DNA of 63,398 nt, the filler included, from Trichodelitschia bisporula (Eukaryota), in the NCBI GenBank assembly GCA_010356995.1. It is 6 parts of 4 records of this genome, joined end to end, with 100 filler letters (N's around TTAATTAATTAA, not from the genome) between each part and the next. Parts side by side here need not be neighbours in the genome. Positions count along the whole stretch, not along the records: positions 57,321 to 60,152 come from ML996711.1; 5 more parts are not named here. One strand, written 5' to 3'. Numbering within the stretch: position 1 is the stretch's first letter; every line of letters begins with the position of its first letter. Below the pieces are notes generated by a model. That model saw nothing but the letters and a program-made list of their open reading frames with translations, ran no database searches and was not told the origin of the DNA. A program made the position numbers and the translations under genes. Positions 18,554 to 63,398 of the stretch are shown here, piece after piece.

Positions 18554-18694
18554 TGTTGAATTTATGGCGGCAACCTGGGGTGGCTGGAGTGGAGCCAGGA
18601 GACGGGGGTTGCCTCCTGGCGAGGTATATAGTCAGCTCACTTCCCACTGCTAGTCGATCAAGCAACTCAGTCAAGTTCACACTTCATTTTAACA
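18554..18694 (+). mobile_element. Solo LTR family B (~140 bp), no TSD
   Basis: TGTTGAA...TTTAACA; homologous to the Copia 3' LTR at 61572-61711. Confidence 0.85.
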
Positions 18695-19237
18695 CCCAAG
18701 TCGTACTGAATCACTCCGCCACAATCCTTGGACGGCTGGCAAACAACAACGTCCCCAAGCCGGATGTCGTCTTTTGCGCTCGGCACACCGCCTCCGATGC
18801 CGACCAAGACGCCGAATGGAACCGAAGTGAAAGTTGACTTCATTTGAGCAACCGCCGAGGCCGCCGAGTTTGTGCCCGTCAGCCCCAAGACCATGATGAC
18901 CGTATTGTGTTCGCCAACGCGGCGGAGCGTGTAGCTACTGGGATCGGACGCGTCCCGGGGGAGAGGTTTGGTGCTCTTGGTCGAGCATCTCCTGGGCTGC
19001 TGCAAGTTCAATGTCAAGCGCGCAAATACACCCGATTGTGCAGTCTTCGTGACGAAGTTGGCGGGTTGGCTTTCTGTTGGTGGTTCTCTGGAGGGCAAGG
19101 GGTAAGGTTGAGGTCTGGCTGACATTGCTCGCGGGCGCAGGTGTGGTGGTCTCACCAGCAACAGGTGAGGAGGGTCGTGAAAGACTGGAAGAGGCATGGA
19201 AGCGGCCCTGTGTCCGGATCCGCTTTGCAGGTGGCAT
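18695..19237 (-). pseudogene. Truncated, frameshifted PNP_UDP-domain NLR 5' fragment (paralogue of the gene at 47564-48636)
   Basis: MPPAKRIRTQG...TIGCICALDIELAAAQEMLD, frameshift near 18965, then GEHNTVI...GVLVGIGGGVPS..DIRLGDVVV..VIQYDLG ending at LTR-B. Confidence 0.85.
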
Positions 19238-19724
19238 CTTGGAAGTAATGATGCTAGTCAAGAAATTGCGGACTTGTAAAAATGCAGGAGTGGAACTGGA
19301 GGTTAAAGGCGAGGCTTTGGGGCTTCGAGCTGAGCTCAACTGCGGGGCAGAATGCCAAGAATGAGGCTGTGAGCTGTCGGGCGCGGAGGGGGAGGACGAG
19401 ATTGGAGGAGACAGCTACATGCCACGGAGCATCAAATTCTCCTACCAACTGATCATTTCATAGACGAAGACTTCGCTGGAGGACATACCCGCTTGTTCAT
19501 CCATGTTGCACCGCCCACGTTGCGGAAGCCCGCCGTATGCCACTGCTAAAACAAGTGCGAACTTGAGCGAATTGCTTAATTGACGGGCAGCGGGAATGGA
19601 CTGACGATATACCTCTGTTTCCTGTCCCCGCCACCACAGGTCGCCTCTATCAATTTAACAGTTTGACCATCGCCGTTGGCAGCGCCCACATGCTCGGCGC
19701 TTGTCCTCCATTCCCCTATACGCA

Positions 19725-20032: not shown

Positions 20033-22053
20033 TCATGACAGCAGCGCAAATTCTGAAACAACGTCCTTGAGCATGTTGTCAAGAACGACGCACGTGAAAA
20101 ATCCGGGATCGAAGACCACGAAATAAGAGGTTTGGACACGTCGCTAAACGAAAATTAGCGATCCGGACAAATGACAGAAGGAAGGTTGAACTTACGGAAG
20201 GACTTTGCTGGCCGAGAACTTCGGAAATCGACCACGATGCAGTACTTAAAACTGAAAGAGGTGTAACGGCCTTCCCCGACAAACCGGTCGTAATGCTCCT
20301 GCAGTTGGATCCCGTCCCGCAGCAATTCAATGCCCCAATGGACCTCAGGGATCACAAAGTCGATTCGCTGCCCGCCCAATTCCTTGCTGGAAAACTCCGG
20401 GGTGGGAATGACGCGTGCTCTGGTGACCTTGTATATCGTGCGGTAGAGTTCGGCACCATAGGCTGCTTCTGGAGTCTTGGATTCTCGTCGCAGAGCATTC
20501 CCACAAAACGACTTCAGGCCAGTCAAGACACACTCCCGTACGCTCTCGAATGGGAAAGGGCGGGTGAGTTGTGGAACAACGGTCATCGCGGCAAACCTGG
20601 CTAAGGTTAGCTATAATTCGTGCAAAACAGTATAATGGACATACCAGCGATGAACTTCGGTCGGATAAGTATAGACCATGGAACTGCCGTCTTTCACAAC
20701 GGCGTGCAGGTAGCCCTTGACATAGCACTTGCGAAGTGCTTCAGAATTTACGTCCTGTAGCTGAGCGAACCCTTCTATCGCAGCCTTGATGAGAACTTTG
20801 CGGGCATCGGGGTCCTGAAACGTGTCATGAGGAAATCCGCGGTATGCAGCACAGCATCGGATGACGTCTACGAGGCCATCCCTATTGAACAAGAAATGCT
20901 CAAGGGAAGCAGACTGAATTTCCTTTCCATTTCTGACGATAATTTTGCAATCCAGGACCATTGAAGGCTGAAGTCAGCAACACCCAACCGTACAGATTGC
21001 TAAGCAAAAGGATGAGACCCACATGGGATTCCAAGAAATTCTCAATCAGGGCAGTCGCAAGGCCAATGTGACCCTCAGAAAACTTGAACAGCATGTCTAG
21101 GGCCTCATTCGAGATTGATGCGGATATCGCCGTAGTCTTCTTCATCCCCCAGCTCATGAACTCTTCTTGCGAGAAAAACATGCCCACGGAGACAAAAGCT
21201 GACGGACGTAGCCCGACAATGCAATTCTCGGGAAGTGTCAATGGAGTCAATGCACTCTCGTCATTGCCAAGGTCCGCCGAACTGCCATAGCAACAGGCGA
21301 AGACAAACTTGATACTTTGTGGTCTTTTTTGAATTTCTCCAAGACACCCTTGATAGCCTCGTTCCAAAAGATTGCATCAGCGTAACTCGTCTGCCCTTCA
21401 TCGAAAAGAATGTAGGCTGGTGTGCAAAGGACGTCTGTGTGAGCATCCGGCATTAGTTCCTTCAGCTGATCAAACCAGGGTTTCGTTGCCCCTTTAGGGT
21501 AACGGGAAAGAAGATGGACCTGATTGCCTTGGAGACGAAGGTAGTGATAGAGGAGGTCCATGACGCTGGTCTTTCCGGACGCAGGGGTGCCTCGAAGCTG
21601 AACGACACCGGTGCGTTCAAGACGCGCGACAACAGTCTCCAGGAGAGTTGTTCGTGGCTCCAGGCAAAGGTATTGTGCGACTTCATTGTAGGTCAGGATA
21701 TCGAGTGGAACGGTATTTCGCTCGCTCGCACCTCTCGCGATTGTGGCAAAGGATTCGTCTTGGGGCACTTCATTCTGGTTAGGTAGGCCGGGGAAGGATG
21801 AGTTGCTGTCCTCACCAACGTCAAACCCCGAAGAGGGCAGTGCAGCAGCTGTAGTCGGCAGACTGGGCGTGTCGTGGAATGAGAATGCATGATAGCAAAC
21901 TGTGCAGGTTGGATCACCGCCTGCGCCCGCCGGCGCCGAAGCCTGCATGCAAAGGCACCCCATCATTCCTTGCCTGAAGCGGCATGGTCCACGGCACACC
22001 ATGATGGGTGGGCTGGAAGGGCGTGAAAATGGAGGGCGCCGGAATATTTTCAT
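20033..22053 (-). pseudogene. Cys/His header + P-loop NTPase + C-terminal PD-(D/E)XK-like domain (Crinkler/CR-effector-like), with two +1 frameshifts
   Basis: Walker A RGTPASGKTS, Walker B ILFDEGQ, C-terminal PEAAYGAELYR..PEF..RIDFVI..WGIELLRDG..LQEHYDRF..CIVVDFR. Introns 20968-21022, 20597-20644 and ~20143-20195. Frameshifts near 21328 (A6 run) and ~20125. Confidence 0.7.
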
Positions 22054-24010
22054 GATGGATGATAGCGTCCCTAAATCTGGAGTTCTTGATCGCGACTGAC
22101 GTGGGTGTAGGCAGTACTGATGGTGTGAGTTGCTAGGCCTACGTGTTAAGGTAAGGAGGTTCGGTTGCTTGAGAGATAGCTTCTGGCCTTTGTTTATTCC
22201 CCAAGCACATGGAACATCCTTCAATGAATAACACACACGTGGATCCTTGGACACACGCAAAAAAAAGCCCTATATCGACGCACGAATCGGATCCAAAGCT
22301 TCCAGTCAACCGATCATCACTTTGCCTTGATTTGATACCACACGGAAGCAAGGCTATGATGGTTAGAAGGGTTTTCGGCCGACGGGCTCTCTGTACAGTA
22401 AGTGACGATCAGCCACGTTCCGACGTAGCCACGCATATAAATCAAGCCACCGAATCCACTCACTCGGTAGGTATCGGCCCGACCTTTAATCCGAGAGCCA
22501 GTACACTCCGCAGTCATGTCTTTCTCTGTCTCCCAGATGCCTCTGCCTCCCGGCGTAACGTTCGCTGACATCAACGTATCGCTCGATGATGTGGGCGAGC
22601 ACCGGCGTTCGCACGCCCGCGCATTCGCACGCCCGCGCATCGGCGTCAGTCGATAATACTCCGGACACCGCTCCGGGCCCCTTCTGATGGCCCCATCAGT
22701 ATAGCGTCGGACGGCGTACGGCCGGGGGACCTCCGTTCTTCCACAGCCTCGCCCTCGCCCTCCCCAGAAAGACCCCCAGCTACCCCCATCGCGAGCTCAT
22801 TGACCGCGAGTCCTCGGCGCTCAGCACTGCCGCCAACACTACTGAGCTCGACCGCGTTCATCGGTAAGCAGGCCTTCCCGCCCCTTTGCATGAACCGCGG
22901 TCAGGTAGCAGCACAAAGCCTCCCATCGAGAACGGCTTCACTCTCAACGCCAAAGCGGCCGCGAAGTATACACTGATGGAGCCCCTCCCGGCGCTGAACA
23001 TCCGCAACCGCAAGCGCAGCCTGGATGTGAGATCACGGCTGTGACGGCGACAGGCACTGGCTGTGTATGATCTGCCATGGCCGCAGCACCCATGACAGCA
23101 GCATCCGTGAGATCACCTCGTTCAGCCTCGGCGGCACAAGTCACATCACCCGCCACCCAGCCAAGTCCCACCGGATCACACCCTCAGGGTCCCCGCGGCT
23201 CACTACTGGCCAGGAGATTCTTCGACTGGAGCTCGTCCCGAATGACTGCATCCCATAGACGCCAGTCTGCTGTCGACTTGAGCGTGAATAATAACACGTG
23301 ACCTCTCGCTGACCATAGTGGCGGTGGCGGTGGCGGTGCACGACCTCCGAAGATCGTGGAACCAACTCGACTCTACCTAAACAACTAATCTTCCGGTAGT
23401 CTCGCGCTCACCGGGCTCATAACCTGTTGTAACTTTAGGGTCTTGGAATACTGCGATGAGTTGGTCAAATTCCTGCAACCTAACTATCTGCTGATATATA
23501 TACATAAAGAGTGGCGAATATGCTTGCCGCAAACAGAAAGAACTAGAATACACTCGAACTCCGTGATTGCCAATCTGATCCTTCTGGCCCCTTCCAACGG
23601 TCTGAGATTTCGCGCAGCCATTTGTTCCATCCGACTGATGATTCGAGCTTTGCGACGGTTCCTAACGACGAGAGAGCAGAGATGGCACCAAGGGTCTTGG
23701 GGTCGGCCATAATGCTCGTCCGGGGAACGTCGTTTCCACAGCAAGGTCTGCTTCAAGTGGAAGGCAGGGACAAGAGAAGAGGTGGGAAAAGATCCTTTCC
23801 TTTCGTTCAAAGGAAAAAGGAGGAAGGTTAGGGCCGCTTGGAAGTGAGAGGTAAAGAGGATAGAGTCAGAACTGTTGCAGGACCAAAATTGGAGGTTGAA
23901 GATGATGGTTGCGTGCCTTGAACAGATGATCAACGTCACCTCATATGTCGAGGCAGTGGAGCATCGAACGACGACAGGTCTTCCCACATATTGCTGGCTA
24001 CAAGTTTCGA

Positions 24011-24682
24011 GCAGATGATCGTCGCTCGCCTCAGCCTTTCCCAAGGAAATTGAGCACCTGCATATTGCAGCTCTCGGATAGCTGGACAGCTGCACGCCGC
24101 GAGCTAACCGCAGGTCTCAAAGCAGATGTCTGCTCATCTCGGCCTTTCCCGAGGAATGGAGCACTTTCGTGATGCAGCTTTCGGACAGCTGAACAGCTGC
24201 ACGCCTCGAGCTGACCGGAGGTCTCACACAGCAGATGTCTGCTCTTCTCGGCCTTTCCCGAGGAAGTGGAGCACCTCACGTTTGCAGCTCTTGGACAGCT
24301 GGACAGCTGCACGCCCCGAGCTGACCGGAGGTCTCACGCAGCAGTCAGCCGCAATGTTGAACGGTGGCCGGCTGTTGATGGTGCCCCCAATCACCCGGAT
24401 TTTGAGAAATCCGGCGATTCCATTAAGACTGATTCATTGGTGAATGACGGAGCTCAAGTGCGGGGTACTTTGTTTTCTTTTGCTTAGCTTTTATACGTTC
24501 ACAGCCTTGGCAGACCATGCCTGAGTTGGCCAGGAGTTTGAGTTGAGATTTTTGAGTTCATGCGATTTTGTGCGCAGTGGAAGCAGCGGTTAAGCTGCTA
24601 TGCATGTTATCTCAACGGTCTTTATTCATTTTGTAGGAATACTTAGCTGATTGTGTAGAATAAGCATTCCGGGCTCATAACC
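24011..24682 (+). repeat. Three ~110-bp imperfect tandem units plus flank; a shortened version occurs at 15190-15546
   Basis: GCAGATG...CCTTTCCC.AGGAA..GAGCAC...GGACAGCTGCACGCC.CGAGCT.ACCG.AGGTCTCA units start at 24011, 24122 and 24231. Confidence 0.8.
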
Positions 24683-25056
24683 TGTTGAAAGGAGGTGTGA
24701 GATTAATGGAAACATCACAGCATCACCAGTTAGACCGAAGGTCTGTTCATGAACAAGTTGCTTAATTGTCAAAGAGGTTGGGGTCTAGAGTCTACTTATA
24801 CTCGAGCCCTGTGGCTGAAACTGGGTAAGGCTGAGCACAGCCACCGCTTTCCAACAGTTTGTTGAAAGGTGATGCGTGATCAACAGAAACGTCACTGCAT
24901 CACAAGTTGGACCGAAGGTCTGTCCATGAACAAGTTGCTTTATTGTCAAAGAGGTGGGTGTTGAAAGGGGATGAGTGATCAATGGAAACATCACAGCATC
25001 AAAAGTTGGACCGAAGGTCTGTCCATGAACAAGTTGCTTAATTGTCAAAGAGGTGG
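24683..25056 (-). mobile_element. One full (24683-24856) and two partial (24860-24958, 24959-25056) LTR-A copies in tandem
   Basis: Each copy begins TGTTGAAAGG on the plus strand; both partial copies stop at the same AAAGAGGTGG motif. Confidence 0.85.
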
Positions 25057-25593
25057 ACCCACCTCCGGTGAACCCTTAGGCGGTATGCCGAATTCCGGGT
25101 AACCCCTAAGCGCATCGCCGAATCCCGGGTAACGTCCTTACTCCCGGGTAACTAGCTCGGTGCCGGGTAACTTAAAAGCGGGAATATATCGCTCGAGTAT
25201 TCCTTATTAATAGTTCCGCTAATAGCTTCATTAATATCTAGCGCATGGTAAAGGCCGCATTTCTCGATGTATCCAATAGTAGAACTCCTATCCTTACTAT
25301 AGGCGGAGTCGCGGCAAATCCGGACTACGGTGCCGACAGCTTCGACCTTAACAACGTTAAGAAGCACAACTAGATCAAAGGCGACTACAGCCTGTAGCGC
25401 GACGACTTTAGAAGTAGCGCGAGTTGATGTAGACAGCATAGAACGCACCGTCTTCTTCACCTGTAATGGTGAGATGTAGGCGACGGCGACCTATTCCTAG
25501 CAGGTTAATTTGCCTAATAATCCCTTAAGGGTTACGATATACACTACAGGCATCAGAGGATAAGGCGTCGCGTTAAGTCTCCGGTATAGCTAT

Positions 25594-26012
25594 CAAGCAC
25601 CGGCACTGCATCAAGTACTGGCACCGCGATTAAACGCCGGTACCGCGTTCAAGCACCGGTACCGCGGCCAAGCATCAGCGCCGCGATTAAGAACCGATAC
25701 CACTTGAAGCATCGGGACCGCGTTGAAGCACCGATATCGCGTTGAAGCACCGGCACTGGATCAAGCGCCAGCACTAGATTAAGCACTGGTACCGCGATCA
25801 AGCACCGGTACTGGAATAAGTACCGGCACTGGATTAAGCACCGGCCCTAGATCAAGCACCGGCACTACGTTTAAGCACCGGCACGACGCCTAAGCACCGG
25901 CACTGCATTCGAGCACCGGTACTGCGTTCAAGCACCGGCACCGCGATCAAGCACCGGCACTGGATTAAGCACCGGCACCGTGATTAAGCACCGGCACGGC
26001 GTTCAAGCACCG
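25594..26012. repeat. Minisatellite of ~22 degenerate 19-bp units
   Basis: Consensus approximately (T/C)AAGCACCGGCAC(T/C)G(G/C)(A/G)T. Confidence 0.85.
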
Positions 26013-41338: not shown

Positions 41339-41410
41339 GGCCGTATGGCGTAATGGCAACGCGTCTGACTACGAATCAGGAGATTGCAGGTTCGACCCCT
41401 GCTTCGGTCA
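41339..41410 (+). tRNA. tRNA-Arg(ACG)
   Basis: GGCCGTATGGCGTAATGGCAACGCGTCTGACT-ACG-AATCAGGAGATTGCAGGTTCGACCCCTGCTTCGGTCA; T6 tract downstream. Confidence 0.95.
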
Positions 41411-47563: not shown

Positions 47564-48636
47564 GGAAGCAACAACAAAAGCTCTTTAGCGTACGCTGCCG
47601 CCGTCCCCGCCGCGAATGGCTGCCAGCTCTTATTCTTGTGAGAGTCCGAGTAGTCGCAGATTCCCCGCACAGGCAGGCATGGAAAACTGTTCATCACCCC
47701 GGCGGCTTCCATTTCGAAGCACAGGACGCCTCCGAGTTCCTTGCTGACTTTGTCGCGTTCCTTGGCATCGCGCATGACTTGATTCCCCGAGGCGATCGTA
47801 CCGTAGTGAACCATGACATGTTCGCCACGTGTCTGGCGCCGCACGCTATGTTCTTCCTTACAATTCTTGCAGTTTTCCTCTCCCTCCTCATGGTTGTACA
47901 CAGGGTCGTATAGGACATCGGGCCCAGCCTTGTCGCGAGCGAAAAGGGACTGGTTGCTGAGGTTTGCAAGATAATCTAGGAAAACAACTCTTCCTTTCAG
48001 ATGGCTGGCCTTCAGACTCACCACCGCGTTCAGCAAGGCCATTGGGGGCGCGTTCAGAAATCCAGTTCGTTCAACTCCGTCCGGCCTGGTCTTGCCCAAG
48101 TCGTACTGGATCACTCCGCCACAATCCTTGGACGGCTGGCATACAACAACGTCCCCAAGCCGGATGTCGGCTTTTGCGCTCGGCACACCGCCTCCAATGC
48201 CGACCAAGACGCCGAATTGAACCGAAGGGAAGGTTGACTGCATTCGAGCAACCGCCGAGGCCGCCGAGTTTGTGCCCGTGAGCCCCAAGGCCACGATCAC
48301 CGTATTGTGTTCGCCAATGCGGCCGAGCGTGTAGCTATTGGTATCTGATGCGTTCCGGGGGAGACGTTTGTGCTCCTCATCGAGCATTTCCTGGGCTGCT
48401 GCAAGTTCAATGTCAAGCGCGCAAATCCATCCTATCGTATAGTCTTCGTGACGAAGTTGGCGGACTGGCTCTCTATTAGTGGCTCTCTGGGGGGCAAGTG
48501 GTAAAGATGAGGTCTGGCTGACACTGCTCGCGGGGGCAGGCGCGGGAGTGTTGCCGGCAACAGGTAAGGAGGGTTGCGAAAGGCTGGAAGAGGCACGAAA
48601 GTGGCCCTGTGTCCGGATCCGCTTTGCAGGTGGCAT
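47564..48636 (-). CDS. PNP_UDP-domain protein, N-terminal part of a fungal NLR; 3' end lost in the assembly gap
   Basis: YTIGWICALDIELAAA, LVGIGGGVPS, HYGTIASGNQVMRDA, LCFEMEAAG, RGICDYSDSHKNKSWQPFAA; open frame up to the gap. Confidence 0.88.
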
Positions 48637-49283
48637 CTTGGAAATAATGATTCTAGTCAAAAAATTGCGGACTTGTGAAAATGCAGGAGCGGAACTCGAG
48701 GTTAAGGGCGAGACTTTGGGGCTTCCGGCTGAACTCAACTGCGGGGCAGAATGCCAAGAATGAGGCTGTGAACTGTCGGGCGCGGAGGGGGAGGACAAGA
48801 TTGGAGGAGACACAACCACATGCCACTGGGCATCAAGTTCTCCTACCAACTGATCAGTTCACAGACGAAGATTTCGCTGGAGGACATGTCCGGTTGTTCA
48901 TCCATGTGCACCGCCCACGATGCTTGCGTCGTCTATGCCCGCGTCGTAGGTGCTGTACGGGATATCGAGACTGACCAGGGCTCTAGCATAAACAGGCTCG
49001 GGAGGATGCCGGAGTGGCGGTCGTGCAACGATACAAGGCTGACTGCGATGCTATGAACATACACGTCAAAAAGCCTTTAGTAAAGCGTTTTGCTGCACAG
49101 ACATTCCGCAATTTTCGGGGCCTGATACTACTATCACGACCCAAGCCCGCCAACGTAGCCGTCTTACCTGGTCAATTTTTGAGATCCCATCGGCCACCGT
49201 TCATTAGACAGTGAATAAATGGTGCCCCTCCGGACAGCAACAAGCCGACGTTCTTAGTTTACAGCAGCGCAGAGCTGCCTCCT

Positions 49284-50393
49284 TCACTTTCCCAATACCT
49301 TCCGTGTCACACTGCGCGGTAAGCAGCTAGAAAGGTCAGCAGGACGTAAAAGGAAAAGATAATGCCTTACTACACCGGATCCACTTCCTCCAGCCCGGGA
49401 AACTTCAAAATGCTGAGTCCCGCAAGCCCAAATACCGTGTGAAAAACATCCACCATGTCGCCTGGCCGATCAGATATGCCCCCGTGCTCAGGGTCCTGGC
49501 ACCGGAGAATGAAGCTCTCTAATGCCTTACCGTCAATCCAGTGTACCCGGTTCAGCATCGCCAGACTGCTGAGCACCCACCAGCTGTAGCACACATCCTC
49601 CTTCTTCTCCGGCCGTCCGTTCAATCCGCCCTTACTCTCGCCCACGGACACCTGCCGCTCGCTCAACCACCCAGCCAAGTGCTCCGTATCGACTGTATCA
49701 AGGCGGTCCGCAATCGACAGCGCCGCAAGGTAGGTGAATATCTGGCCGGAATGCGATTCTGCACCAGGCGAATTGCCATATCCACCGTCGGGATTGGCGC
49801 AGGACTCGATATATGTGACCGCACGGGGAACATCGACGAGATCCAACCGACCAAGGAGCGACAGCGCATTCAACGCTCCGTACAGGAAGCGCGTGTCAGG
49901 CTCTCCATACTGATCGCCGAAGAACGTCCCCGTAGCCGGATCCTGCAGCCCGCAATAACTGCTCCGTCAGCCCAGTCCACATCTATCCAGCAAACTCACA
50001 CTTAGCAATTTTCTCCTTCCCCCCCGGCACTCTCGCCTCAAGCTCCTCAAATCCATCCACCAGCGCCAAAATCTGCACTCCGCTCACAGTATACAGCATA
50101 TGCGCATCATGTCCTGGAGCAGCACCCATCCCGCCCGACTCATGCAGACAGCTGAGCACGAAGTCGAGCACCTCGGCGCGGGGCAAGGCGTCCGGCTTCC
50201 CGAGCAGGTGCAGCGCGGTCAAGCCCCAGTATAATCCGTTTAGTCGTAGATGTTCTGTCAACCAGTACTCAAATTCGTCGTGCCGCTTGTCTAGCGTTTG
50301 AGTGTAGCGCACGTGGGCGCTGGTGTGAAGTTGCTGTGGGGAGGGTGCCGAGGAGAGGGCGCCGCCGCGGCCGGGGCCGGCGACGAGGGACAT
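49284..50393 (-). CDS. BET2: Rab geranylgeranyltransferase (type II) beta subunit, 3 exons
   Basis: [77 protein letters not shown]. There is a frame conflict at the first intron (see findings). Confidence 0.93.
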
Positions 50394-51100
50394 CGTGGGT
50401 GTGACTGTAGGTCTTCAAGGCTTAGCAAGGCTAGTTCTGACACTGCCAGCCGGCACGTGTGCTGCAATGAAGCTATCTGGGCTTTCTGGGGGGTGGAGCA
50501 GAGGTTGACGTGGGGTCACTTTGAAGGTTGCCTGGTCTCGTCGAGCGAAGCTCGCGGTAAGCGAGGAGGGTGGTAGGGTGCGGGAAGCGGAGATATGTCG
50601 GATGATCCTCAAAGGGTTTACTCTGCTTGATCGGTATGAAAAATATCAGCTCTAATGATCCCTCAGCCTTATGGCTTTGTACGTAGTAGATGAGAGTGAA
50701 CTTTAACTTGAGTTGGCAGGGTTAAGATAAACCCCGCGCCAAGCCGTAAATATATACTGCGGGGTGGGGCAAGAGCTTCAGCCACCCTTGTCACTGTACA
50801 GTAGCTCTGGACGAGAGAGGCGGCACTTGTGCTGGATCTTGAGGCCAACCTCAGGGAGTTACTGGGAGTAGATAGCCCCTAATCCATCCAAGGTCTGTGC
50901 CTTTAAGTTAGAGGCTTTCGGCCACGGTTGCCTCGCAGGGAGCTGGGTGATGGTGGTGATGTTACACTGAGGACAAAAAATGGACTGATGTTGAATAGGA
51001 TATGGCTTTCACCGAGCTTGGTCTCAGTCTCGAGGGCATTCTGGTGGGAATTTCGCCGGTGTTGCACTCGTGAAATCAAGCACCATACGCACAAAGCTAT

Positions 51101-51831
51101 CTATGCCTCCTCTTCCTCGTTGACAATCAGGTCCCAATGCTTGACCTCAAAGGTCTCCAAAATGCGGTCGCGCATCTGTATCGCCGCCCCAAGAAGTGGG
51201 CCTGGCTTGCGCGCCTCGAGGTCAACATCTTCACGGGCATACTCGTCTGCCATGTGTGGGACATTAATCGAAATGACAATGTCGGTCTTCTGCGCCGCGA
51301 GCAGCATGAGCACCAGGAAGATGCCCGTGAAGTCGGCCTGCGGAGAGCGGGAGGGCGCGGCACTTGGGTGTTGGGTGGCAAACATAGTGAACGCTGGGAT
51401 CGACCTACGGAGTGAGGTTAGGTAGAGAATGGGGCACAGACGAGGTAGTTAACGCGTAAAGAAGAGCTGTACTCATATTAGCGGGGCATACATACGGCAT
51501 TTCGCCAGCGCCGCTGGGGCAAAATCCGCCCAGATGCGCGTCTCGTCGGCGCTGCTGGTGACGATATCAGCGAAATGAAAACACAGAGCGGCTTCGTCCG
51601 AGCTGTCGTTCGGCTGGATGATGCGCTCAGTTATGTCGAAGATGATGCTCGTGAGGCCGGTGGTGTGGAGGTAGACTTCTTGGTTATCGGGAACCTGGCG
51701 GATGGTGCTGTGGGGTTAGATGGGCGCAGAGTGGAAGCTTCCCGTGAATCTCACCTAACGTCCGCGAAGTCGGGGGGAAGGTCGGCTGTGAGGGCGCCGC
51801 CGAAGAGTGGGACGGTGGTGAAGGTGGTCAT
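51101..51831 (-). CDS. MOG1: Ran guanine-nucleotide release factor Mog1, 3 exons
   Basis: LFGGALTADLPPDFADVS-TIRQVPDNQEVYL, SIIFDITER, QKTDIVISINVPH, FEVKHWDL. Confidence 0.9.
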
Positions 51832-53181
51832 TGTGAATGTTTTGATGGCTTTGCCGAAGTGAGGTGAGATTCGAGGTTCATAGCAGGCAGGGTATTTAAG
51901 TCTGGGGGAAAGTTCTAGTTCTAGGCAGACATAGACAGACTCAATGCTCAAAGCTATGACTATTTCAACGCCTCATGAAGGATGCAGCTCGAGACGAAAT
52001 TATTGGACAACTGAAGCAACTTTGGAAAGTGAGCATTTCACATTCTCTAGTCATCGATTTGGTCCTGCAGAGACCTGTCTTTGTGTTGAACACACCGTTG
52101 ATTGGATTGGATTTTCACCTATACACACCCACGCGGCGGCAGCACCGTACTGATGTTTACTAGTCCTAACAGCCAGAGGGGTGGGCGGGACGACCCGAAG
52201 ACCGAGTTTAGACATTTATCTGTCGCTTGATGTCGTCGCGTTGTTGTCGCTTGATGTCAGTGAGGAAGCGGCTTCTGCAGACCATTTTTCTTGTTCCCTC
52301 GTAGGCGCTTCTCCCCCGATACGAGGCCACAAAAGCTGGTGCAGCCTACTCCGCATGGACGGAAGGTGCAGCACAGCCAAGCACCTCACGCAAGAAAATC
52401 GCCTTACTGTTTCGTACCATGGTAGTTTAAGCACGAACCACACGACTCTTCGAGCTCCGCCGGCATCTGCCTTCGGGAGGGGTGCAGTAATGTACAAATC
52501 CGCAGTGGTCAACCGACATGATGGGAAAACTTTTGAGAGCAGGGCTCGTCGACACCCGGGTACAGCGGAGCGGACAATGCTTTTGCCAGCTGGCCACCTG
52601 CCCTTCCATTCATACTGTGGTAAATTTAAGCCTTGATTATTGGTGGACGTGTCGCCATGCAGTATGCATGTAGACTGCAGAGGTGCGTTGGCATGTTTCA
52701 GTAGAGTAGGCCTGCGCCTTCGAAGAAGAGGAGTTGAGGCTGTGCCTCGTGAGATGGAGGCGTGAGGCTCTGCCTTTGAAGGGGAGGGGTGGCTCTCATT
52801 CCCTTTCTGTTCATTCTCCGCTCAGCCAACTTCAAAACGCACGCTTCACGCTTCACGCTTCACGCATCATTCGGGCCTTTCTTCTTGGCTGTTTGTACAA
52901 CATCTCCCGCTATTATCGGATCAGAAAGCCACATCATCGGTACGAATGCATTTCTCTAATCACTGCCTCCTCTGATTCGCGATAGTCCAAAACCAACTAG
53001 GCTAGGCAAAGCCAGGAGCCTCCTCGTTAACAAATTTATTAAGAGCCGTCGGCCCACTATCACCGTTCTTCACAATATCGCTTCGCCGTCTCCGTCGAAA
53101 GTGCGCAGCCCTGTGGGTGGCGTGAAGGAGGGGACAAGGAGCAAAAGACTCATCATTCGGGAGGGAGTCTCGCCTCCCCGC

Positions 53182-56005
53182 ATGGAAAGACAGCAACTAG
53201 ACAAGAAGGTAGGTTCTCAGTTTGCATGGCCCACCTCGTGGTCTACAGATATCGAATGCAAACCCACTGACAATGTGGAGCTCTCTCATGCTGACACGGC
53301 TGCTGTTCGGAGCCTACTGCGCAAATTGAAGCATTCGGAATACACAATAGGATGGATATGCGCACTCCCTATCGAACTCGCGGCTGCCCGAGAGATGCTG
53401 GATGAGGAGCACCAGGATCTCCCTCAGAGTCCACCAGATGACAATATCTACCGACTTGGCCGCATTGGCGAACACAATACTGTCATTGTGGGCTTTCCGG
53501 CCGGATTCACGGGCTCCTCACAGGCGGCCCGGGTGGCCAGTCAAATGCAGACGACTTTCAAGTCGATTCGGTTTGGCCTTATGGTGGGCATTGGAGGTGG
53601 TGTGCCGAGCCGCAGACATGATATTCGACTCGGAGATGTTGTCGTGAGTCAACCATCGAATGGCCATGGCGGAATAATCCAGTACGACTTTGGCAAAACA
53701 AGACCGGACGGGTTTGAGCGGACTGGCTTCTTGAATTCACCTCCAACCGCTTTACTGAGTGCTGTAGCGAGTCTGAAGGCCAATCGCGACTTGGAAAAAA
53801 AATTCCTACGCCACCTTTTGAAACCGACCCGTCCACCTTGGTTTGCACAGAATGCCGGACCAGACGTTTTATATTGCGCTAACTACAACCATGACCGACC
53901 TGGTACTGATGACTGTCGGGAGTGCAAAACGGAGCATGTCGAACAGCGACAGCCACGTGAACATTTCATCGTCCATTACGGCACCATAGCATCCGGAAAT
54001 CAAGTCATGCGAGATGCTACGACAAGAGACAACGTCAGCAAGGACCTTGGAGGTGTACTCTGCTTTGAGATGGAGGCGGCAGGGCTTATGAACCATTTCC
54101 CGTGCCTTGTTGTGCGGGGCATTTGCGACTATGCGGACTCGCATAAGAATAAGAACTGGCAACTGTTTGCGGCAGGGCTAGCAGCTGCGTATGCAAAAGA
54201 GGTCCTTTTGTTGATGCCGGCAGCCGAAGTCGAGACAGGATCATCTGCGGTTGAGTTGATGAACCAAAATCTTAGTAAGTAGCCTTCACCCTTTCTTAAC
54301 TGGTAGAGGTCATAGGGAAGGTAGGGCTAACCGCAGTCGCTAGAATTCAATAAGGTTCTTGGAAACATACCCACGGCTGTAGAAGCGCCTTTCAATGCAC
54401 GCAAACGAGAACACGACACTGCCTGCCTCCCTGATACCCGTGTCGCACTTCTCAAGCAGATATATGAATGGGCTGATGGCATGGACTCCCCAAATATATT
54501 CTGGCTGAGCGGGTTGGCCGGTTATGGTAAGTCTACGGTTGCGCGAACAGTGGCCGCCAGATGTTTCAAGAAAGGCCTTAGCGCCAGTTTCTTCTTCACC
54601 AAAGGCGGCGGAGATGTTGGCCACGCCGGCATGTTTGTTACAAGCATCGCAGTGCAGCTTGCAAATAATGTGCCGGATCTAAAGCCGGTCATTTGCGATG
54701 CCATCGCCAACAACCGCAACATCGCAAGCCTGTCTCTACGCGAGCAGTGGGACCGTCTTGTTCTCGCTCCTATATCGCTGTTTGGAACCGATCAATCCTC
54801 TCCAACATTTCTCCTGGTTGTCGACGCTCTTGACGAGTGCACAGATGAGAGCGATGTGCGGATCATTCTTCAGCTTTTCGCCGAACTTCGAGGATCGCAC
54901 CAAACCAGGCTGCGAGTATTTTTGACGAGCCGACCCGAAGCTCATATCCGGGATGGGATTCAGCATATACCAGAAGTGGAACACTACGACTTTGAACTGC
55001 ATGGCATTCAACAGTCGGTTGTCGAACATGATATCCGCGTTTTCTTAGGGCACGAGCTTCGCCGTATTTCCTGCGAGTACTTTGATGGCACTGACTGGCC
55101 AAGCGCGCAGGACATCATTGGTCTTGCTCGGAACGCAAGTGGCCTATTCATCTGGGCTGCTACGGCATGTCGCTTTGTTAGGACGGGGAGACAATTTGCC
55201 ACCGACAGACTGGCTTCCCTCCTAAACCAATCCCCCACCGAGGGTAACACGCCGGAGAAGCAGCTCGACTACATCTATTCCACTGTCCTCAAGCAAAGCG
55301 TTCCTGAAGACTTTTCGGAAAAAGAGAAGGAAAAGCTGCGGTCTATGCTGAAACCTCTACTTGGAAGCATTGTAACCTTGTTCTCTCCACTTTCCATCCA
55401 GTCCTTGAGCAACTTGATGGAAACTTGCGGCAACGAAGTAAGCCAGACACTGCGCGATCTCCACGCCATTTTCGACATTCCAAAAGAGCCAAATCGCGCA
55501 CTCCGTTTACACCACCCTTCATTTCGGGACTTCCTTCTGGATAAAAAAAGAAGCGGAAGTGCCAAGTTCTGTGTTGACGAGAAGCAAGCACATCAGTCTC
55601 TTTCTGCGCACTGCATGCGACTTATGTCCAAATCCCTTAAGCAAGACTTGCTGGAAATTGGCCGTCCGGGTGCGCCTGCAACAGAAATCGCGAACGATCG
55701 ACTAGAGCGATGTCTCCCTGCTGAAGTACAATACGCATGCCTCTACTGGATCCAGCATACTCAGAAGGGTGGCTCCCAGCTTAGAGATGATGACCAAGTT
55801 CATCGGTTTCTAAAAGAGCATCTTCTTCATTGGCTTGAGGCGCTTGGATGGATGCAGAAGGTTTCCGAAGGGTTTCATGCCATCGTGTCTTTGGAGTCCA
55901 TGATATCGGTAAGCTGGACGTAAAGCAGAGTGGGGATACTTGGCTGATACTTGGTTTAGGCGCAGAGGTGTCCGCGACTATCGGAGTTTGTTCATGACAT
56001 GAAAC
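53182..56005 (+). CDS. HET-E-like NLR: PNP_UDP effector + NACHT, C-terminal sensor (probably WD40) lost in the gap; exact start uncertain
   Basis: Complete PNP domain; intron ~54275-54343; CLPDTRVALL; Walker A GLAGYGKST; Walker B LVVDALDEC; LTSRPE; GLFIWAATAC; HHPSFRDFL; QYACLYW; LHWLEAL; intron 55909-55959; FVHDMK. Confidence 0.92.
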
Positions 56006-57320: not shown

Positions 57321-57462
57321 CAGCTTTCACTTCGGTTCAATTCGGCGTCTTGGTCGGCATCGGAGGCGGTGTGCCGAGCGCAAAAGCCGACATCCGGCTT
57401 GGGGACGTTGTTGTTTGCCAGCCGTCCAAGGATTGTAGCGGAGTGATTCAGTACGACTTGGG
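57321..57462 (+). pseudogene. PNP_UDP fragment cut by LTR-B
   Basis: FTSVQFGVLVGIGGGVPSAKADIRLGDVVVCQPSKDCSGVIQYDLG, then LTR; same junction as at 18694/18695. Confidence 0.85.
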
Positions 57463-57603
57463 TGTTAAAATGAAGTGTGAACTTGACTGAGTTGCTTGAT
57501 CGACTAGCATTGGGAAGTGAGCTGACTATATACCTCGCCAGGAGACAACTCCCGTCTCCTGGCTCCACTCCAGCCACCCCAGGTTGCCGCCACAAATTCA
57601 ACA
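57463..57603 (-). mobile_element. Solo LTR family B
   Basis: Reverse complement of 18554-18694. Confidence 0.85.
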
Positions 57604-59331
57604 CGCAGCAACAGCTCCGCGGCGGGCCAGTCGGGCGACCCGAGCACGTTGATCAAGTCCTCGATGAAGATGTCGAGCAGGTTGTGGTACGGCTGGTCGT
57701 CGGACTTGGTCGACGCGAGCGCGCGCTGCGCGAGGTAGCGAATCACGTAGGAGGCGTTTTTCAGGGCATTGTCGTGCGTGCGCGTTCTCAACGAAGAGCA
57801 GGCGCATCGCGAGGAACTCCATCTTGGTGGCCGCGCTCTCCGCGACGTTGACCTCAGATACGAGCATCTCGAGCCGGTGAAACACGGGCCCGCACATGTG
57901 CAGCAGCGCGGCCAGCGGTTTCTTCTGGGAGGCGAAGATTTTGAACGCGTCGGTGCTCATGCGCACCTCGACGACCGGCACGACGCTGTTGACGACGTGC
58001 TCCTGTGCGCGCATCATCCCCCCAGAGCACCACCTCCGAGTACAGCTGCTTGTCCTCGCGGCCGGCGGTCAGCACGCGCCGCAGGATCTTTGCCGCGTAG
58101 AGCCCCTTCTCCGCGTGATGCAGCCAGACGGCCCAGTCCGCGACGTCGTCGTTGACGACCAGGTTGATGCACTCGACCGAGGACACCGTATTGTCGCACA
58201 GCTTCTGCAGCCGCATCACGCTGTCGACAGCAACCCGGGAGAACGATCCGGTGGCGACAGCGGTGTGGACCGCGTTTTCGATGCGTACTGTTGGAAAGCG
58301 GTGGCTGTGCTCAGCCTTACCCAGTTTCAGCTACAGGGCTCGAGTATAAGTAGACTCGGGATCCCCACCTCTTTGACAATTAAGCAACTTGTTCATGGAC
58401 AGACCTTTGGTCCAACTTATGATGCTGTGATGTTTCCATTGATCACACATCCCCTCTTAACACGTACCTGCAGCGCCTCGGCGAGCATGGGCGGGTCGCC
58501 CTCGTCACCCGGGCCCTGGCTGAAGTACGCGGGGTCGTCGCGCTCCGCAGCGTCGGCCTTCTCACGCTGATCGATGCTCAGCTCCAGCACGTCGTGGCGT
58601 GGGCGTTTGCGCGCCTCTTCCACCACTCGCGCGTCAACGTCGGAGAATTCCTGGTACTCATCGCGGCCATGCTGACGCGGATCGTGGAGTTGTCCCTGGC
58701 GGGGGCGGCATTGAGCGTGCGGATCTGCATTTGCGGTGGGGCTTGACATATATTGTTGGCTCATCGTCTGACTGGACGGGTGGCTGGACGGTCTGGTGAA
58801 CAGTGGGCTGGACATTTTGGACCACGGTTAGCTGGACCTGGGTAGCTTGAACCTGAACGGCTGGCCCGATCTGAACGGTTGGCTGAACCACGGGGGGCTG
58901 GACCGTGACTGCTGGCCGAACCTGAGCAGGCTGGACCGAACGGTTGGCCGAGCTTGAACAGGCTGCTGGACCTGGATGACAGGCCGGACCGGCTTCCGAG
59001 CCGTCACTTGGATGCTGCCTAGTATGTCCGGCGCAGGCGTCATCTGGGGCTTCGGCTCCACCTGAATCGTCTCGCCCTGGGGCGGAGCTTTGCCATGTGG
59101 GCGTAGACACACGCCGCACCGGCGGCATCACGACATGGGCCGTCTTCCGCGGCTTCTCGGCCACAGCGGGATAGTGGTGCGCAACATGGGCCTTGTCGGA
59201 GACCAGCCTTGTCGAACAGGCTCAACCGGAGCGGCTCGCGGGCGCTGACCCGTCGGCTCGACAACGCCGGCAGCCCCGCAGAACTGTACTCGGTGAGGGC
59301 GCCGGGATGCAGCAGCTGGCGTAGCTTGCGG
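57604..59331 (-). pseudogene. SCC2: Internally deleted, frameshifted Scc2/Mis4 (NIPBL) cohesin-loader copy carrying a solo LTR-A
   Basis: SIDQREKADAA..DDPAYF..MLAEALQVR|IENAVHTAVATGSFSRVAVDSVMRLQKLCD..AAKILRRVLTAGREDKQLYSE..KMEFLAMRLLFVENA..STKSDDQPYHNLLDIFIEDLINVLGSPDWPAAELLLR. Confidence 0.78.
58289..58462 (+). mobile_element. Solo LTR family A with a 5-bp target-site duplication
   Basis: CGTAC-TGTTGG...TTAACA-CGTAC. Confidence 0.93.
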
Positions 59332-59412
59332 GTGGCACGGGTGAAGTTGGTGGCGCGGGTGGAGTTGGTGGCGCGGGTGGAGTTGGTGGCGCGGGTGGAG
59401 TTGGTGGCGCGG
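59331..59412. repeat. 18-bp tandem repeat x4
   Basis: GGTGGCGCGGGTGGAGTT units. Confidence 0.8.
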
Positions 59413-59931
59413 AGGAGATAGTGGCGCGGGTGGAGGTGGCGCTCTAGAATCAGGCTCTCTGTGCAGGGTCTCGGATGACATACACAGGATTATCCCCCTA
59501 GCATCCTAGCATAGCTTCACGTCTTTATCAATGGAGGCTAATGAGAGGACATGCTGTACGTGACCGTCTCCCTTTTCCGCCTTGGACCAGGTTGAGCTAG
59601 GGCCTGGCCCCGTCTTCGTCAACGCTCTGCACGACGAAAAGAAGCTGGGAGTGGCAAACTTTGAACACAGCCACCACATTCCATCATAACTTCTCTGCGT
59701 TGTGAAGGAATGGTTAATTCCAGATCCTTCCAGATGCACAATGTATTGAAGCTATTTAATCACTGATGGCGATATTTTCATTCGCCATTGATACTATTTG
59801 TAATTGGAGCATTCGATTTCAAAGCTGTCTTATTCCAATACGTAATTCATTGCCACTTTCGCTCTAAAAAAAAATGTATAAAAAGACAATGGCCTCAACG
59901 GAGGTGGGTGGGGAGGAGGTTAAGAGACACT

Positions 59932-60152
59932 TCAGCAAATGAATTCCATACACAGCACTCGACCAGACCGATACCCCAAGCCAATCTTATCCCCGTGAAT
60001 GGCGACGGCCGCCGGATAGCGATACTCGAGTGGAAGCCAAAGACGTTCTTCCGCGCCTATGGTTATCCATTCCCCGACAATTCTGAAACGTTGAGGATCC
60101 GGTCCGGAACCTGGCGACTGCTTGCCGTCCGGCGAGAAGGCCACGGCGTTGA
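59932..60152 (-). CDS. C-terminal tail of a NACHT-WD40 (HET-E/D-like) NLR; partial
   Basis: NAVAFSPDGKQ (WD40 unit), then EWITIGAEERLWLPLEYRYPAAVAIHGDKIGLGYRSGRVLCMEF, the typical tail of these proteins. Confidence 0.75.
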
Positions 60153-60252: not shown

Positions 60253-61711
60253 ACAGATCGCGTCTGCTCGCTGAACAAAGCGCTGTACGGTCTGAAGCAG
60301 TCCCCGCGAATCTGGTACAACACCCTGTCGGCCTTCCTGGCAGAGCTGGACTTCCAACCTCTCTCGTCCGACATGGGTGTGTTTTCAAAGGGAAACACGT
60401 ACATCGCCGTGTATGTTGACGACCTCCTCATCGCCGGACCTTCGGAGAACGAGGTACAACAGATCAAGGATGCCCTCAAAGCACGCTTCGAAATGGTGGA
60501 CCTGGGCCCCTGTGCGTTCTATCTCGGCATCTCAATCCGGCGAGACCGCCAGAACAGGGCCATCTTTCTCGGTCAGCGTGCCTACATTGAAAGGTCCTTC
60601 GCGACTTTGACATGCTGGACGGGAAGCCGACAGTCACTCCCATGGCAACCGACAAGATCGTTCCAGCACCCGATGACTTCCAGGCCCCTCAGAGCCTCAA
60701 GACCTGGTACGCCAAAGCGATCGGTTGCCTCATGTACGCCATGCTTGGTACCAGACCCGACATCGCATACGCTGTTTCCGTCTGTAGTCGCTTCCTCGCG
60801 AACCCTGGACCCCAGCACGAAACGGCGGTCAAGAGGATCTTTCGCTACCTTCGTGGCACCATGGACATGGAACTTGTGTACCGCGGCTCACTGGAAGCTC
60901 TGGCTGGTTACACCGACTCTGACTGGGCGGGGGATTCATCCACGAGGCGATCAACGGCCGGATACATCTTCAACCTCGGAAGTGGAGCAGTGAGCTGGTC
61001 ATCGAAGCGCCAGAGTGTTGTTGCACTGTCATCATGCGAAGCGGAATACATGGGGCAGACGCAAGCAACTAAAGAAGCTGTCTGGTTGCGCAACCTGCTA
61101 AAGGAACTTCTCAAACACGACGAGCCAGCAGCTACTGTCATCTTCGGAGACAACCAAGGCGCCATCTCGCTGGCAAAGAACCCTCAATTTCACGCCAGAT
61201 CGAAGCACATCGCCATTCAGCACCACTTTGTACGCGAGAAGCAGGCGGAGGGGGTCATCGACCTGCGGTACATCTCGACAAAGGAGCAGATCGCTGACGG
61301 ACTCACCAAGGCCTTGCCAAAGGATCCCTTTCTGGCTTTCAGGAAAGCTTTGGGGCTGGAGTGTCGCTTCGGACGGGAAAGCAATGGGTAAAGGCTTCTG
61401 GCACTCTTTTCCCTCGTTTTTCCCAAAGGGTTTTTTGAGGTTTTAATGAGGCCAGACACTGCCAACCCCTTCTTGTTTTTGTCCCTCTTGGAGTTTATTC
61501 CATCCCGGGACATGGGAGGCAGTGGGAGCTCACGGTTAGTGCACTTCCATCCACCTCAGTTTGAGTGGGAGTGTTGAATTTGTGGCGGCAACCTGGGGTG
61601 GCTGGAGTGGAGCCAGGAGACAGGGGTTGTCTCCTGGTGAGGTATATAGTCAGCTCACTTCCCACTGCTAGTCAATCAAGCAACTGGTCATGTTCACACT
61701 TCGTTTCAACA
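60253..61711 (+). mobile_element. 3' part of a Ty1/Copia retrotransposon: RT + RNase H, PPT, 3' LTR (family B, 61572-61711)
   Basis: KALYGLKQSPRIW, YVDDLL, TRPDIAYAVS, YTDSDWAGD..RRST.GY, SSCEAEY, DNQGAI, RSKHI, ADGLTKAL. One frameshift near 60590. TTGAGTGGGAG PPT abuts TGTTGAA...TTCAACA. Confidence 0.93.
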
Positions 61712-62550
61712 GTAAGAATGTGGGTGGTTCTTGTAGAAGATTATTAGCATGCAAATGCCAAACTGAAGTTACTTACGGTTTGGGATTTCGCTCATATCCT
61801 TTGTGAAAGACAAGGTTGATTTCCAGAACCAGCTTCTGTCTCATCCGTTCGGAATCGCGGACTAAGGAGAGCCTGACATGCTCATAACAAAGTACTTTGG
61901 GTGATCCCCCAAGATCTTCTCTGGCGTACTCCGGCTCAAGCAATGCCGCTGGCCTTGTTGCCGTAGCCATCGAAATCAGTATAACCAAGGCCACTTGGAC
62001 TCGTAATCTCTCGTTGGTATACTGCAGCCTGTCCCATTTCCAAAGGTGGTTGAGAAGGATGGTCATATCGGCAAAGCTTAGGACAGGCTTCGGCTGTCGT
62101 TCTCTACTGAGTCCATGCTCAGAGGCTAGATCCAAAGAGATGAACTATACAAAATTAGTTTCCCGTTTATCAAGATGAGTCTCTTACTGAATTGACACGC
62201 TTCCTGTCCTCAAGACTCCACACTCGGTGATGCGGTATTTGTCTTCGAGCGGTGTGCCACCGGTCATAGTAGGCGTTAATAGTTATCTCTTTTCGGATTC
62301 CCGTTTGCGTGTCCAAAGTCCATTTCAGAAACAACATAACCAGCTCAGGGTCAGCCTCCGCCATACACTTTTCAGGGTTACTGAAAAGTGCATCTCCATT
62401 AGGAATATCGGAGGCTCGTGCAGCTTCACAGAACTCTTTCCATTGATGGCGGGTTCGGCTCAGGTTGTGTTTTGACGATTTCGAGTATCTTGCCTCCACT
62501 CGGCGGCTTCTCAGCCTAGAGAGAAGGTGAGCGAAGTTTTGCGTCGACAT
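61712..62550 (-). pseudogene. DUF3435 tyrosine recombinase (Starship captain-like), N-terminal half, interrupted by the Copia element
   Basis: QWKEFC, LFLKW, KPVLSFAD..LL.HLWKWD...NERLRVQVALVILISMATATRPAALL, LCYEHVRLSLVR, LVLEINLVFHKG. Introns 62145-62187 and 61730-61776; exon 3 is cut after 18 nt by the LTR. Confidence 0.82.
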
Positions 62551-63398
62551 TTTGATCGAGGGCAGAAGGTTGACTTCCGAACCTGCAGTGGTCTTCGGAG
62601 ATATTTAAGTCAGAGCATTAACTAGTTTACCTCCTAGCCCTCCTAAGGACCATCTAACAACGCCCCTACCGAAGGCATCTAAGGACGCCTTATTCGTCGT
62701 CCTGGAAATTTGAGAAGTTGAAAAGAAGAATCGACAATTCCCTTACGTAGTCGCGCGCTTAATAATGGCAACTTTAATTGGACGATACTCGCCAAGCCTG
62801 ATGACAAAGGATATATGACGGCAGTGTAAATTCAGAGTTTACCAAATTGGGAACGCGACCATAGATACAGTCTCTGAACTACGGCCGCATTTTTGCGGCA
62901 AAATGCACACCGCCTTAACTAAGCTGCTGACTAATGTAGATACCGTACTACAGAGATGGAAAACGCGGCTAGGCGGCAGGGTGCGACTAGTCGCACACCC
63001 CCTTAGCCTTCGTGTACACCCCTTCCGCACCCCACCAATAAGACCGACGAGATCGTTCCCCGCGCGGCCGTGCGAGCCCTGAAGCGACAGGGTCGATGCA
63101 CCGCCGGGCACCCGATAATAAATTGCGAAAGTGGTACCAATCGATAGAGCTCGACGATGCGATCGTTTATCTGTCTTTCTTATTTTGATATCTCTTTATG
63201 CAGCCTCTGCATCGTGCTACAAAGGGCTTGGCCAATGTCACTGTCTGTCACGGGCAACGTCTGGGACATCAAATGTACTGATGCGTGTATGACTGAAAAT
63301 ACTGCTATGAAGAGGAAACGTGAAAGGTCTAGAACTGAAATGCAGGTGCGGGGTGGCAGTGGACCCTGGGCTTGGCACCGAGCGGCTGCATCACGTGG

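Follow-up and report, generated by a model that had tools for sequence, protein, structure and literature searches.

SCC2, the gene of the Scc2/Mis4/NIPBL cohesin loader, is an essential core gene and normally single-copy. How, then, did pieces of Scc2-like sequence come to lie between LTRs and NLR fragments at the end of a scaffold of Trichodelitschia bisporula, whose gene were they, and do they bear on the native gene? The window, i.e., the whole stretch of DNA that was analysed (63,398 nucleotides), consists of several contigs with N-TTAATTAATTAA-N linkers between them. These contigs map to different scaffolds of the genome (G000): positions 1-18279 correspond to the end of scaffold C13, and the sequence from 18380 onward to the start of scaffold C24. 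Positions 57321-60152 are the last 2832 bases of scaffold C25, and the mosaic under study is one whole contig.

Composition of the mosaic

Block mapping bears out the order given in a preliminary description of this DNA, namely a PNP fragment, LTR-B, Scc2-like sequence with a solo LTR-A, and the 3' end of an NLR gene:

57321-57462, plus strand: N-terminal PNP_UDP_1 domain fragment of the NLR family, cut at LTR-B; 96% nucleotide identity to the PNP gene at 47564-48923
57463-57603, minus strand: LTR-B, a copia LTR (TG..CA); 93% identical to the LTR at 61571-61711 of an RVT_2 element
57604-57777, minus strand: Scc2 piece, residues 766-823 of the native exon-2 ORF; 81% nucleotide identity to native, 74% amino acid identity over 57 aa to P0009
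57776-58288, minus strand: Scc2 piece, residues 445-619, with a deletion of ~440 bp on its 3' side and one +1 frameshift; 74% nucleotide identity to native
58289-58462, plus strand: solo LTR-A (copia), inserted in Scc2, with the 5-bp target duplication CGTAC at 58284-58288 and 58463-58467
58463-59331, minus strand: Scc2 N-terminal piece, residues ~47-445 by comparison with native, its Q/P-rich linker much diverged
59332-59931, minus strand: 3' flank (truncated right arm) of an NLR-carrying, 5S-targeting element; 80-96% identical to more than 30 loci
59932-60152, minus strand: C-terminal end of a NACHT-WD40 NLR (translation), truncated at the WD40 repeats, where the contig ends; 82% nucleotide identity to L040 7575-7784

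The PNP gene at 47564-48923 matches PF01048 (E = 1.9e-10); the 46-aa PNP piece of the mosaic alone has no Pfam match. Both LTRs of the mosaic are LTRs of copia elements, and a two-LTR copy of LTR-A with RT/RNaseH-like internal sequence is found at L131. The flanks of LTR-B, TTGGG and CGCAG, do not match each other, which indicates a recombinant junction joining PNP to Scc2. At the other end, the NLR part belongs to a PNP-NACHT-WD40 family, and its counterpart L040 7575-7784 adjoins an ORF with a WD40 match (E = 2.2e-42). An Rfam scan of the window returned one tRNA only.

The assignment to Scc2 holds at the nucleotide as well as at the protein level. An intact SCC2 gene is located on scaffold C20 (G000:C20, ~655309-661170, minus strand), and its 3' exon matches Nipped-B_C (E = 1.8e-58) and Cohesin_HEAT. 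The mosaic pieces align to this gene with HSPs of 72-88% nucleotide identity, the window piece 57600-57779 is the one that matches the Scc2 homologue P0009 at 74% identity, and the Scc2 fragment is 45% identical to P0009 over 179 columns. The sequence is also frameshifted and internally deleted, as had been proposed: it carries the +1 frameshift, and the ~440-bp gap corresponds to native L036 positions 4668-5107.

Taken together, the pieces span residues ~9-823 of the 970-codon exon-2 frame, with 620-765 missing. They begin ~8 codons into exon 2, and no intron falls within the span. The half with Cohesin_HEAT and Nipped-B_C is absent from them; this 3' half is found at the native locus only, where it is single-copy, as are the neighbouring genes (DOHH-like and RPA12-like). 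The affinity of the native Scc2 itself is that of a Dothideomycete-like ascomycete near Venturiales.

Copies in the window and across the genome

A second copy with identical junctions had been reported at 16265-19237. This interval is really made of two contigs, the end of C13 and the start of C24, on either side of a linker, and its halves lie in opposite orientation relative to 57321-60152:

16265-18279, plus strand: separate copy at the end of scaffold C13, consisting of LTR-A, an Scc2 N piece from ~residue 9, spacer X and NLR flank
18280-18379, no strand: assembly linker between two unrelated contigs
18380-19523, minus strand: separate copy at the start of scaffold C24, inverted, consisting of the Scc2 766-823 piece, LTR-B, and the PNP 5' part with leader

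Three of the six junctions (PNP/LTR-B, LTR-B/Scc2 and LTR-A/Scc2) are indeed identical and two differ. Copia gag, not Scc2, lies left of LTR-A in the copy at 16265-18279, and at the Scc2/NLR junction, 59331 in the mosaic, the other copy includes an extra ~450 bp. The sixth junction, the internal deletion, is out of sight in the second copy, where the contig ends at 18380.

Besides the native gene, Scc2-like DNA was found at 15 places in G000, a number that is a lower bound. Twelve of them are scaffold ends (C25, C26, C24, C13, C12, C11, C16, C2) or scaffold starts (C24, C21, C2, C13), and three are internal to scaffolds (C20, C4, C24). The 12 aligned copies are 92.5-100% identical; those of C16 and C2 show no difference (100% identity) where they are aligned, and may go back to one recent duplication or to an assembly duplicate. 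The LTR-A/Scc2 junction is common to nine distinct loci. Scc2 is kept on the other side of the LTR in three of these, and in the remaining six the left flank begins at the LTR and is different in each. The LTR-B/Scc2 junction is common to four loci, with PNP beyond it in three. With junctions common to up to nine loci, the earlier view that the mosaic was copied after it had been assembled can be upheld, and serial duplication through repeats fits.

At the starts of C2 and C13 we find a short, insertion-free Scc2 allele without LTR-A which keeps 45 bp missing from the long copies, so that the LTR-A insertion and the 45-bp loss must be later than the capture. A Thr-rich gene is fused to this short allele, and its repeat copies have also diverged (dS ~0.65). 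Changes among the Scc2 copies are distributed 10/10/10 over the three codon positions and are GC>AT-biased.

In the block maps, no termini are common to the Scc2 copies; fixed ones (TC..CTRR with hairpin, or TIRs with TSD) would point to a Helitron or a Pack-MULE. Transduction by an LTR retroelement or TRIM capture does not agree with the arrangement, since LTR-A sits inside Scc2 with its own duplication and the flanks of the other LTRs are mismatched. A subtelomeric position of the copies was considered and rejected: a telomere scan of 29 stretches gave one short repeat, and the scaffold ends are better explained by breaks at WD40 repeats together with duplications. In most copies the NLR side falls into assembly gaps.

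Could the copies be a product of the assembly, i.e., one locus or two haplotypes? The position of 12 of the 15 places at scaffold ends or starts would be in line with this, as would the linker join that produced the window's second copy and the identity of C16 and C2 over their aligned part. Yet three copies are internal to scaffolds, copies differ by up to 7.5% and have distinct flanks, nine distinct LTR-A/Scc2 loci are too many for two haplotypes, and numerous variants and forms of the junctions occur in the contigs of a public DNA run, possibly the one from which the assembly was made. We therefore regard an artefact as scarcely credible. In two further sequencing runs, presumed to be RNA, 30/30 and 29/30 bins are covered, and none of the fetched copies by itself agrees with the main variants. 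For run X5 (organism B), 20/30 bins are covered by near-identical pieces, with a depth of mostly 2-10 across the Scc2 and NLR sequence; this coverage is likely carry-over.

Divergence from the native SCC2 gene

The preliminary description had considered capture of a host gene. If the pieces were dead copies of the host's present SCC2, their divergence should be even over codon positions and their GC3 should not exceed that of the native gene. The Scc2 copies have neither property. In the core of 222-224 codons, the three copies that hold the conserved core show 25-28 mismatches to native at position 1 or 2 and 98-103 at position 3; in one comparison, 99 of 224 third positions differ, vs 28 and 27 at the other two. 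The copies have a dS of 0.93-1.06 to native (bootstrap range 0.70-1.56) and a dN of 0.13-0.14, i.e., a dN/dS of 0.14-0.15, and four-fold sites have a transversion distance to native of 0.52-0.58, position 2 one of 0.047.

The direction of change points the same way. Third-position differences are AT>GC in 51-52 cases and GC>AT in 11-14 in the copies (p = 3e-7 to 3e-6), and the same direction is seen in two further Scc2 segments (17:4, p = 0.007, and 26:11, p = 0.02). GC3 amounts to 0.91-0.92 in the copies vs 0.74 in native, and exceeds the highest 224-codon GC3 window (0.871) among the 82 host ORFs sampled. The composition is thus outside the sampled host range, as expected for a xenologue. 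Since the changes among copies are even by position and lose GC, decay cannot explain the high GC3. Dead-copy null simulations, in which one lineage was under selection and the other dead, for two ancestors and seven time points, and assuming equal mutation rates in both lineages with a spectrum taken from the copies, matched the data in 0/4200 runs.

BET2 and MOG1 served as a control for host capture; what appear to be their native copies lie next to a housekeeping cluster on C4, and both genes have been duplicated together with a neighbouring NLR. The five BET2 copies show a dS of 0.07-0.16 and a GC3 lower than their source. Their dN/dS of 0.18-0.57 has intervals that overlap the value of Scc2. 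We therefore discarded dN/dS as sole evidence; what carries the argument is the transversion ratio together with the direction of GC change. In-frame indels were likewise dropped as a sign of selection, since lengths divisible by three are frequent, too, among the deletions that arose in dead copies (33 and 45 bp).

From the codon-position, transversion and GC evidence, the source was a selected SCC2 that had split from the native gene long before the piece died. The Scc2 pieces are, with high confidence, not a decayed copy of native SCC2 but derive from a separate selected source. Decay since their death is estimated at ~0.1 substitutions per site.

The NLR element and its relation to Scc2

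The window holds further parts of the NLR-carrying elements and of duplicated host genes:

49370-51830, minus strand: duplicated host genes BET2-like (Rab GGTase beta) and MOG1-like, upstream of the NLR at 52960-56005
52960-56005, plus strand: PNP-NACHT NLR, followed in G000 (C24, L052) by a 2.9-kb gap and then another Scc2 piece with LTR-A
61712-62870, minus strand: left end of the element family with a DUF3435 captain remnant (PF11917, E = 5e-12)

The DUF3435 remnant within the window is located at 61776-62144. The 3' flank of the NLR family is conserved for ~1 kb past the stop codon and terminates at the 3' part of a 5S rRNA gene, and 10 of the 18 NLR loci fetched have the 5' part of 5S at one end and the 3' part at the other. 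The element, ~8 kb in size and mostly captainless, splits 5S ~17-24 nt from the 5S start. An intact DUF3435 captain as first gene is not found in this family; the 12 DUF3435 matches in the genome are all partial, five of them with stops and the longest open frame being 186 aa, and DUF3435 remnants occur at some element left ends. Judged by these termini, the NLR family is one of captainless, 5S-splitting mini-Starships.

Where Scc2 is attached, the right arm stops short of the 5S junction, and next to it lie the remnants of a C2H2 zinc-finger gene and a spacer. The same arm of NLR, zinc finger and spacer occurs on C29 without Scc2. No 5S ends were seen at Scc2-bearing loci within the ~10-20 kb examined, where gaps hide some sides. 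As, in addition, all DUF3435 matches are partial, the Scc2 piece counts as attached to element debris and at most as putative cargo of the element. Because breakpoints fall at LTR starts and within NLR arms, we infer ectopic recombination as the copying route, and Scc2 probably spread by this process at LTRs and NLR arms.

Effect on the native gene

It had been suggested that such copies could expose the native gene to RIP or RNA silencing. A truncated, dominant-negative protein is a further way in which they might regulate or endanger native SCC2. The genome has three C5-methyltransferase loci and gene callers predict short proteins on two of the copies, both of which would suit this idea. 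In Neurospora test constructs, RIP can recognise homology that is interspersed and has an identity as low as 36% (PMC4858203), and low identity alone can therefore not exclude it. The sequences themselves, however, argue against it. The composite RIP index is negative in 9/9 stretches (among them native SCC2, copies, LTR-A, copia and NLR), neither an excess of CpA>TpA nor a raised TpA/ApT is found, and C>T changes among copies favour CpG (31/224) over CpA (4/131). Exact matches to native reach no further than 19 bp in this copy and 28 bp in one other. Of 14 sequences, only one has a 21-mer in common with native, and at 80% identity no stretch exceeds 205 bp. Moreover, the frames are broken and the changes neutral. 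An influence on native SCC2 thus appears highly improbable; as far as can be read from its sequence, the mosaic is non-coding and gives no sign of an effect on the native gene.

Origin of the Scc2 pieces

In a tree of 19 of 120 homologues, the Scc2 pieces are sister to native SCC2 with support 100/100. No closer donor was found. Protein searches with native residues 430-830 gave best database matches only 55-56% identical to native, a HMMER search with the fragment returned nothing nearer than native apart from two close matches that are gene calls matching these copies, and loci of a metagenome scan reach only 47%. The sister position and the lack of a donor leave both a transfer and a lost paralogue, and the tree fits the two equally well.

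A simple account, capture of native SCC2 followed by neutral decay, would have to attribute the pattern to faster synonymous change in the native gene or to GC-biased gene conversion among copies. It can draw on the sister relation, on the long fragment branch (0.17 vs 0.03), on polarised amino-acid changes, of which 22-26 fall to the fragment and 8-11 to native, and on a position 1 that also leans to GC (13:5). But native silent sites would need a roughly six-fold faster change, GC at position 2 is unchanged (0.358 vs 0.354), 33 third-position C/G swaps are not conversion bias, present changes among copies lose GC, and none of the dead-copy simulations fits. This account is largely refuted, and we consider it very unlikely. 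An ancient SCC2 duplicate within the lineage, long functional (possibly as element cargo or from an old hybridisation) and then dead and amplified, would leave the same selection signature and also explain the sister position. That essential genes such as BET2 and MOG1 are duplicated beside NLRs in the same genome, the window BET2 copy having open frames and a dN/dS of 0.18, speaks for it, as do the diverged repeat copies (dS ~0.65) of the Thr-rich gene fused to the short allele. Against it stand the GC3 beyond the sampled host range and the fact that the SCC2 3' half and its two neighbours occur only once, the latter arguing against a relic of a whole-genome or large segmental duplication. 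A paralogue is a possible but less probable source.

Transfer from a related, unsampled fungus has, in our judgement, an even chance of being the source of the Scc2 pieces, and the same balanced judgement applies to a foreign rather than in-lineage source overall. We accordingly hold, at about equal belief and doubt, that the mosaic is functionless, neutrally decaying repeat debris whose Scc2 part stems from the separately evolving, GC3-rich SCC2 of a related fungus. A more speculative and rather improbable variant is that mini-Starships of a 5S-targeting lineage had a functional cohesin-loader gene on board, either their own or acquired from another fungal species, for long enough that it reached dS ~0.9 under selection, and that the same family still picks up host BET2 and MOG1.

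If the debris did arise from the SCC2 of a related fungus, its history might run as follows. An SCC2 diverged from native under purifying selection to dS ~0.9, which the statistics show; its ownership by another species would be a presumption. The exon-2 half then became linked to the right arm of an NLR element, captainless and 5S-targeting, where it lay behind a C2H2 zinc-finger gene and spacer; the junction to the NLR arm is observed, and delivery by the element would be the putative step. The Scc2 piece died and gained deletions of 45 bp and ~440 bp, LTR-A and LTR-B, all of which are observed. Finally, ectopic recombination, with the abundant LTRs and NLR arms as partners, would have been the main route of its spread to ~15 places; here the breakpoints at LTR ends are observed and recombination is the presumed mechanism.

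The Scc2 pieces can thus be read as the fossil record of a second, selected SCC2 that is gone from the present genome. A foreign origin would mean that an essential core gene passed from one fungal species to another within NLR/Starship debris, while the Starship transfers described in the literature consulted concern accessory cargo. If it was a paralogue, the normally single-copy cohesin loader was long kept in two versions. Were the mini-Starship variant true, small NLR elements would be vehicles for core-gene traffic between species, and Scc2 might be a selfish aid to the segregation of the element or of accessory DNA. The codon-position and GC3 test is transferable to other captured fragments in this genome, where it could gauge the foreign share.

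Comparison with known systems

A literature search yielded no paper joining Starship, cohesin and cargo, and a duplicated fungal Scc2 was not among the matches listed. The pieces are clearly homologous to the N-terminal half of Scc2/Mis4/NIPBL and sister to the native gene; they differ from it by lacking the Cohesin_HEAT/Nipped-B_C half, exon 1 and an intact frame. The NLR elements resemble Starships that target 5S rDNA. Voyager inserts 20 bp into 5S (PMC9156397), and other 5S-rDNA-targeting Starships as well as degraded 'Derelict' regions are known (PMC9156397, PMC11162782). Common to both are the split 5S, the NLR carried and the DUF3435 remnants at some left ends, whereas the present elements are ~8 kb and mostly captainless, and the Scc2 copies have lost the 5S-side end. 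In Podospora, TE-associated WD40 NLRs with high internal conservation are found, for which exchange between loci by ectopic conversion is proposed (PMC13449251). NACHT-WD40 genes are tied to transposons there as here; the present case differs in having no RIP signature and in NLRs placed in elements with defined 5S ends.

The capture of gene fragments by Pack-MULEs and Helitrons, as described in PMC11162782, likewise produces multi-copy, non-coding fragments of ordinary genes. The Scc2 piece differs in that the block maps show no fixed termini around it but ends at LTRs and NLR arms, and in that it does not derive from the allele of the host itself. Horizontal transfer by Starships from fungus to fungus (10.1101/2025.01.08.631984) offers a route for the DNA of a relative into such repeat islands; in the cases described there, donors are sequenced and the cargo is accessory, in contrast to an essential core gene and a donor that was not found here. 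The general kind of the mosaic, gene fragments in transposon- and NLR-rich islands, is already known. What is unusual is a fragment of an essential gene that does not come from the host allele.

Elements splitting 5S rRNA genes

The PNP-NACHT-WD40 (NLR) elements that target 5S rRNA genes are approximately 8 kb long, split the genes in question and mostly lack the captain, i.e., the DUF3435 gene of Starship-type elements. This description is drawn from fetched stretches L087, L088, L090, L092, L093, L096, L097, L099, L101 and L103. Their left ends fall into at least two types, and more than 30 NLR 3' ends occur genome-wide. Some 5S-targeting elements carry a C2H2 zinc-finger gene in the right arm, with a weak TFIIIA-like finger match (E 0.002):

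L050 3570-5075; also scaffold positions C11:913k, C23:6k, C29:12k and the C13 start: C2H2 zinc-finger gene

Gene copies in repeats

At six places, the arm upstream of a PNP-NACHT NLR contains BET2-like (Rab GGTase beta) and MOG1-like genes:

window 49370-51830, minus strand: BET2-like and MOG1-like genes
C4:1421k, C4:1561k, C4:5k, C29:37k, C15:7k: the other places

The window copy may be functional, since its frames are open and its dN/dS relative to what appears to be the native copy is 0.18. The short Scc2 allele, which lacks LTR-A, is joined to a portion of a gene for a Thr-rich repeat protein; between the repeat copies of that gene and the one on C22, dS is about 0.65 and dN 0.13-0.2.

L077 1-760, L076 290-915, L131 5200-7000, L132 7200-8496, L130 959-2833: short Scc2 allele/Thr-rich gene

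Other features

A copia element with LTR-B sits within an element's left arm, adjoining a DUF3435 remnant. LTR-A occurs in tandem as one full and two partial copies (24683-25056). Part of an ORF with a weak, below-cut-off STAND NTPase (nSTAND3) match is repeated at C20 between two LTR-A copies. Degenerate tandem repeats were also observed; in those at 1-2705, both strands have a long open frame.

window 60253-61711 and 61712-62870: copia element with LTR-B and neighbouring left arm/DUF3435 remnant
window 21250-22269, minus strand: nSTAND3-like ORF
window 1-2705, 24010-24344, 25569-26012: tandem repeats
window 41339-41410, plus strand: tRNA gene (Rfam RF00005)

Three C5 DNA methyltransferase loci were found (C10:91k, C5:964k, C5:1274k); at one of them the match is interrupted by either an in-frame stop or an intron. 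Change in the repeats is CpG-biased and not RIP-type.
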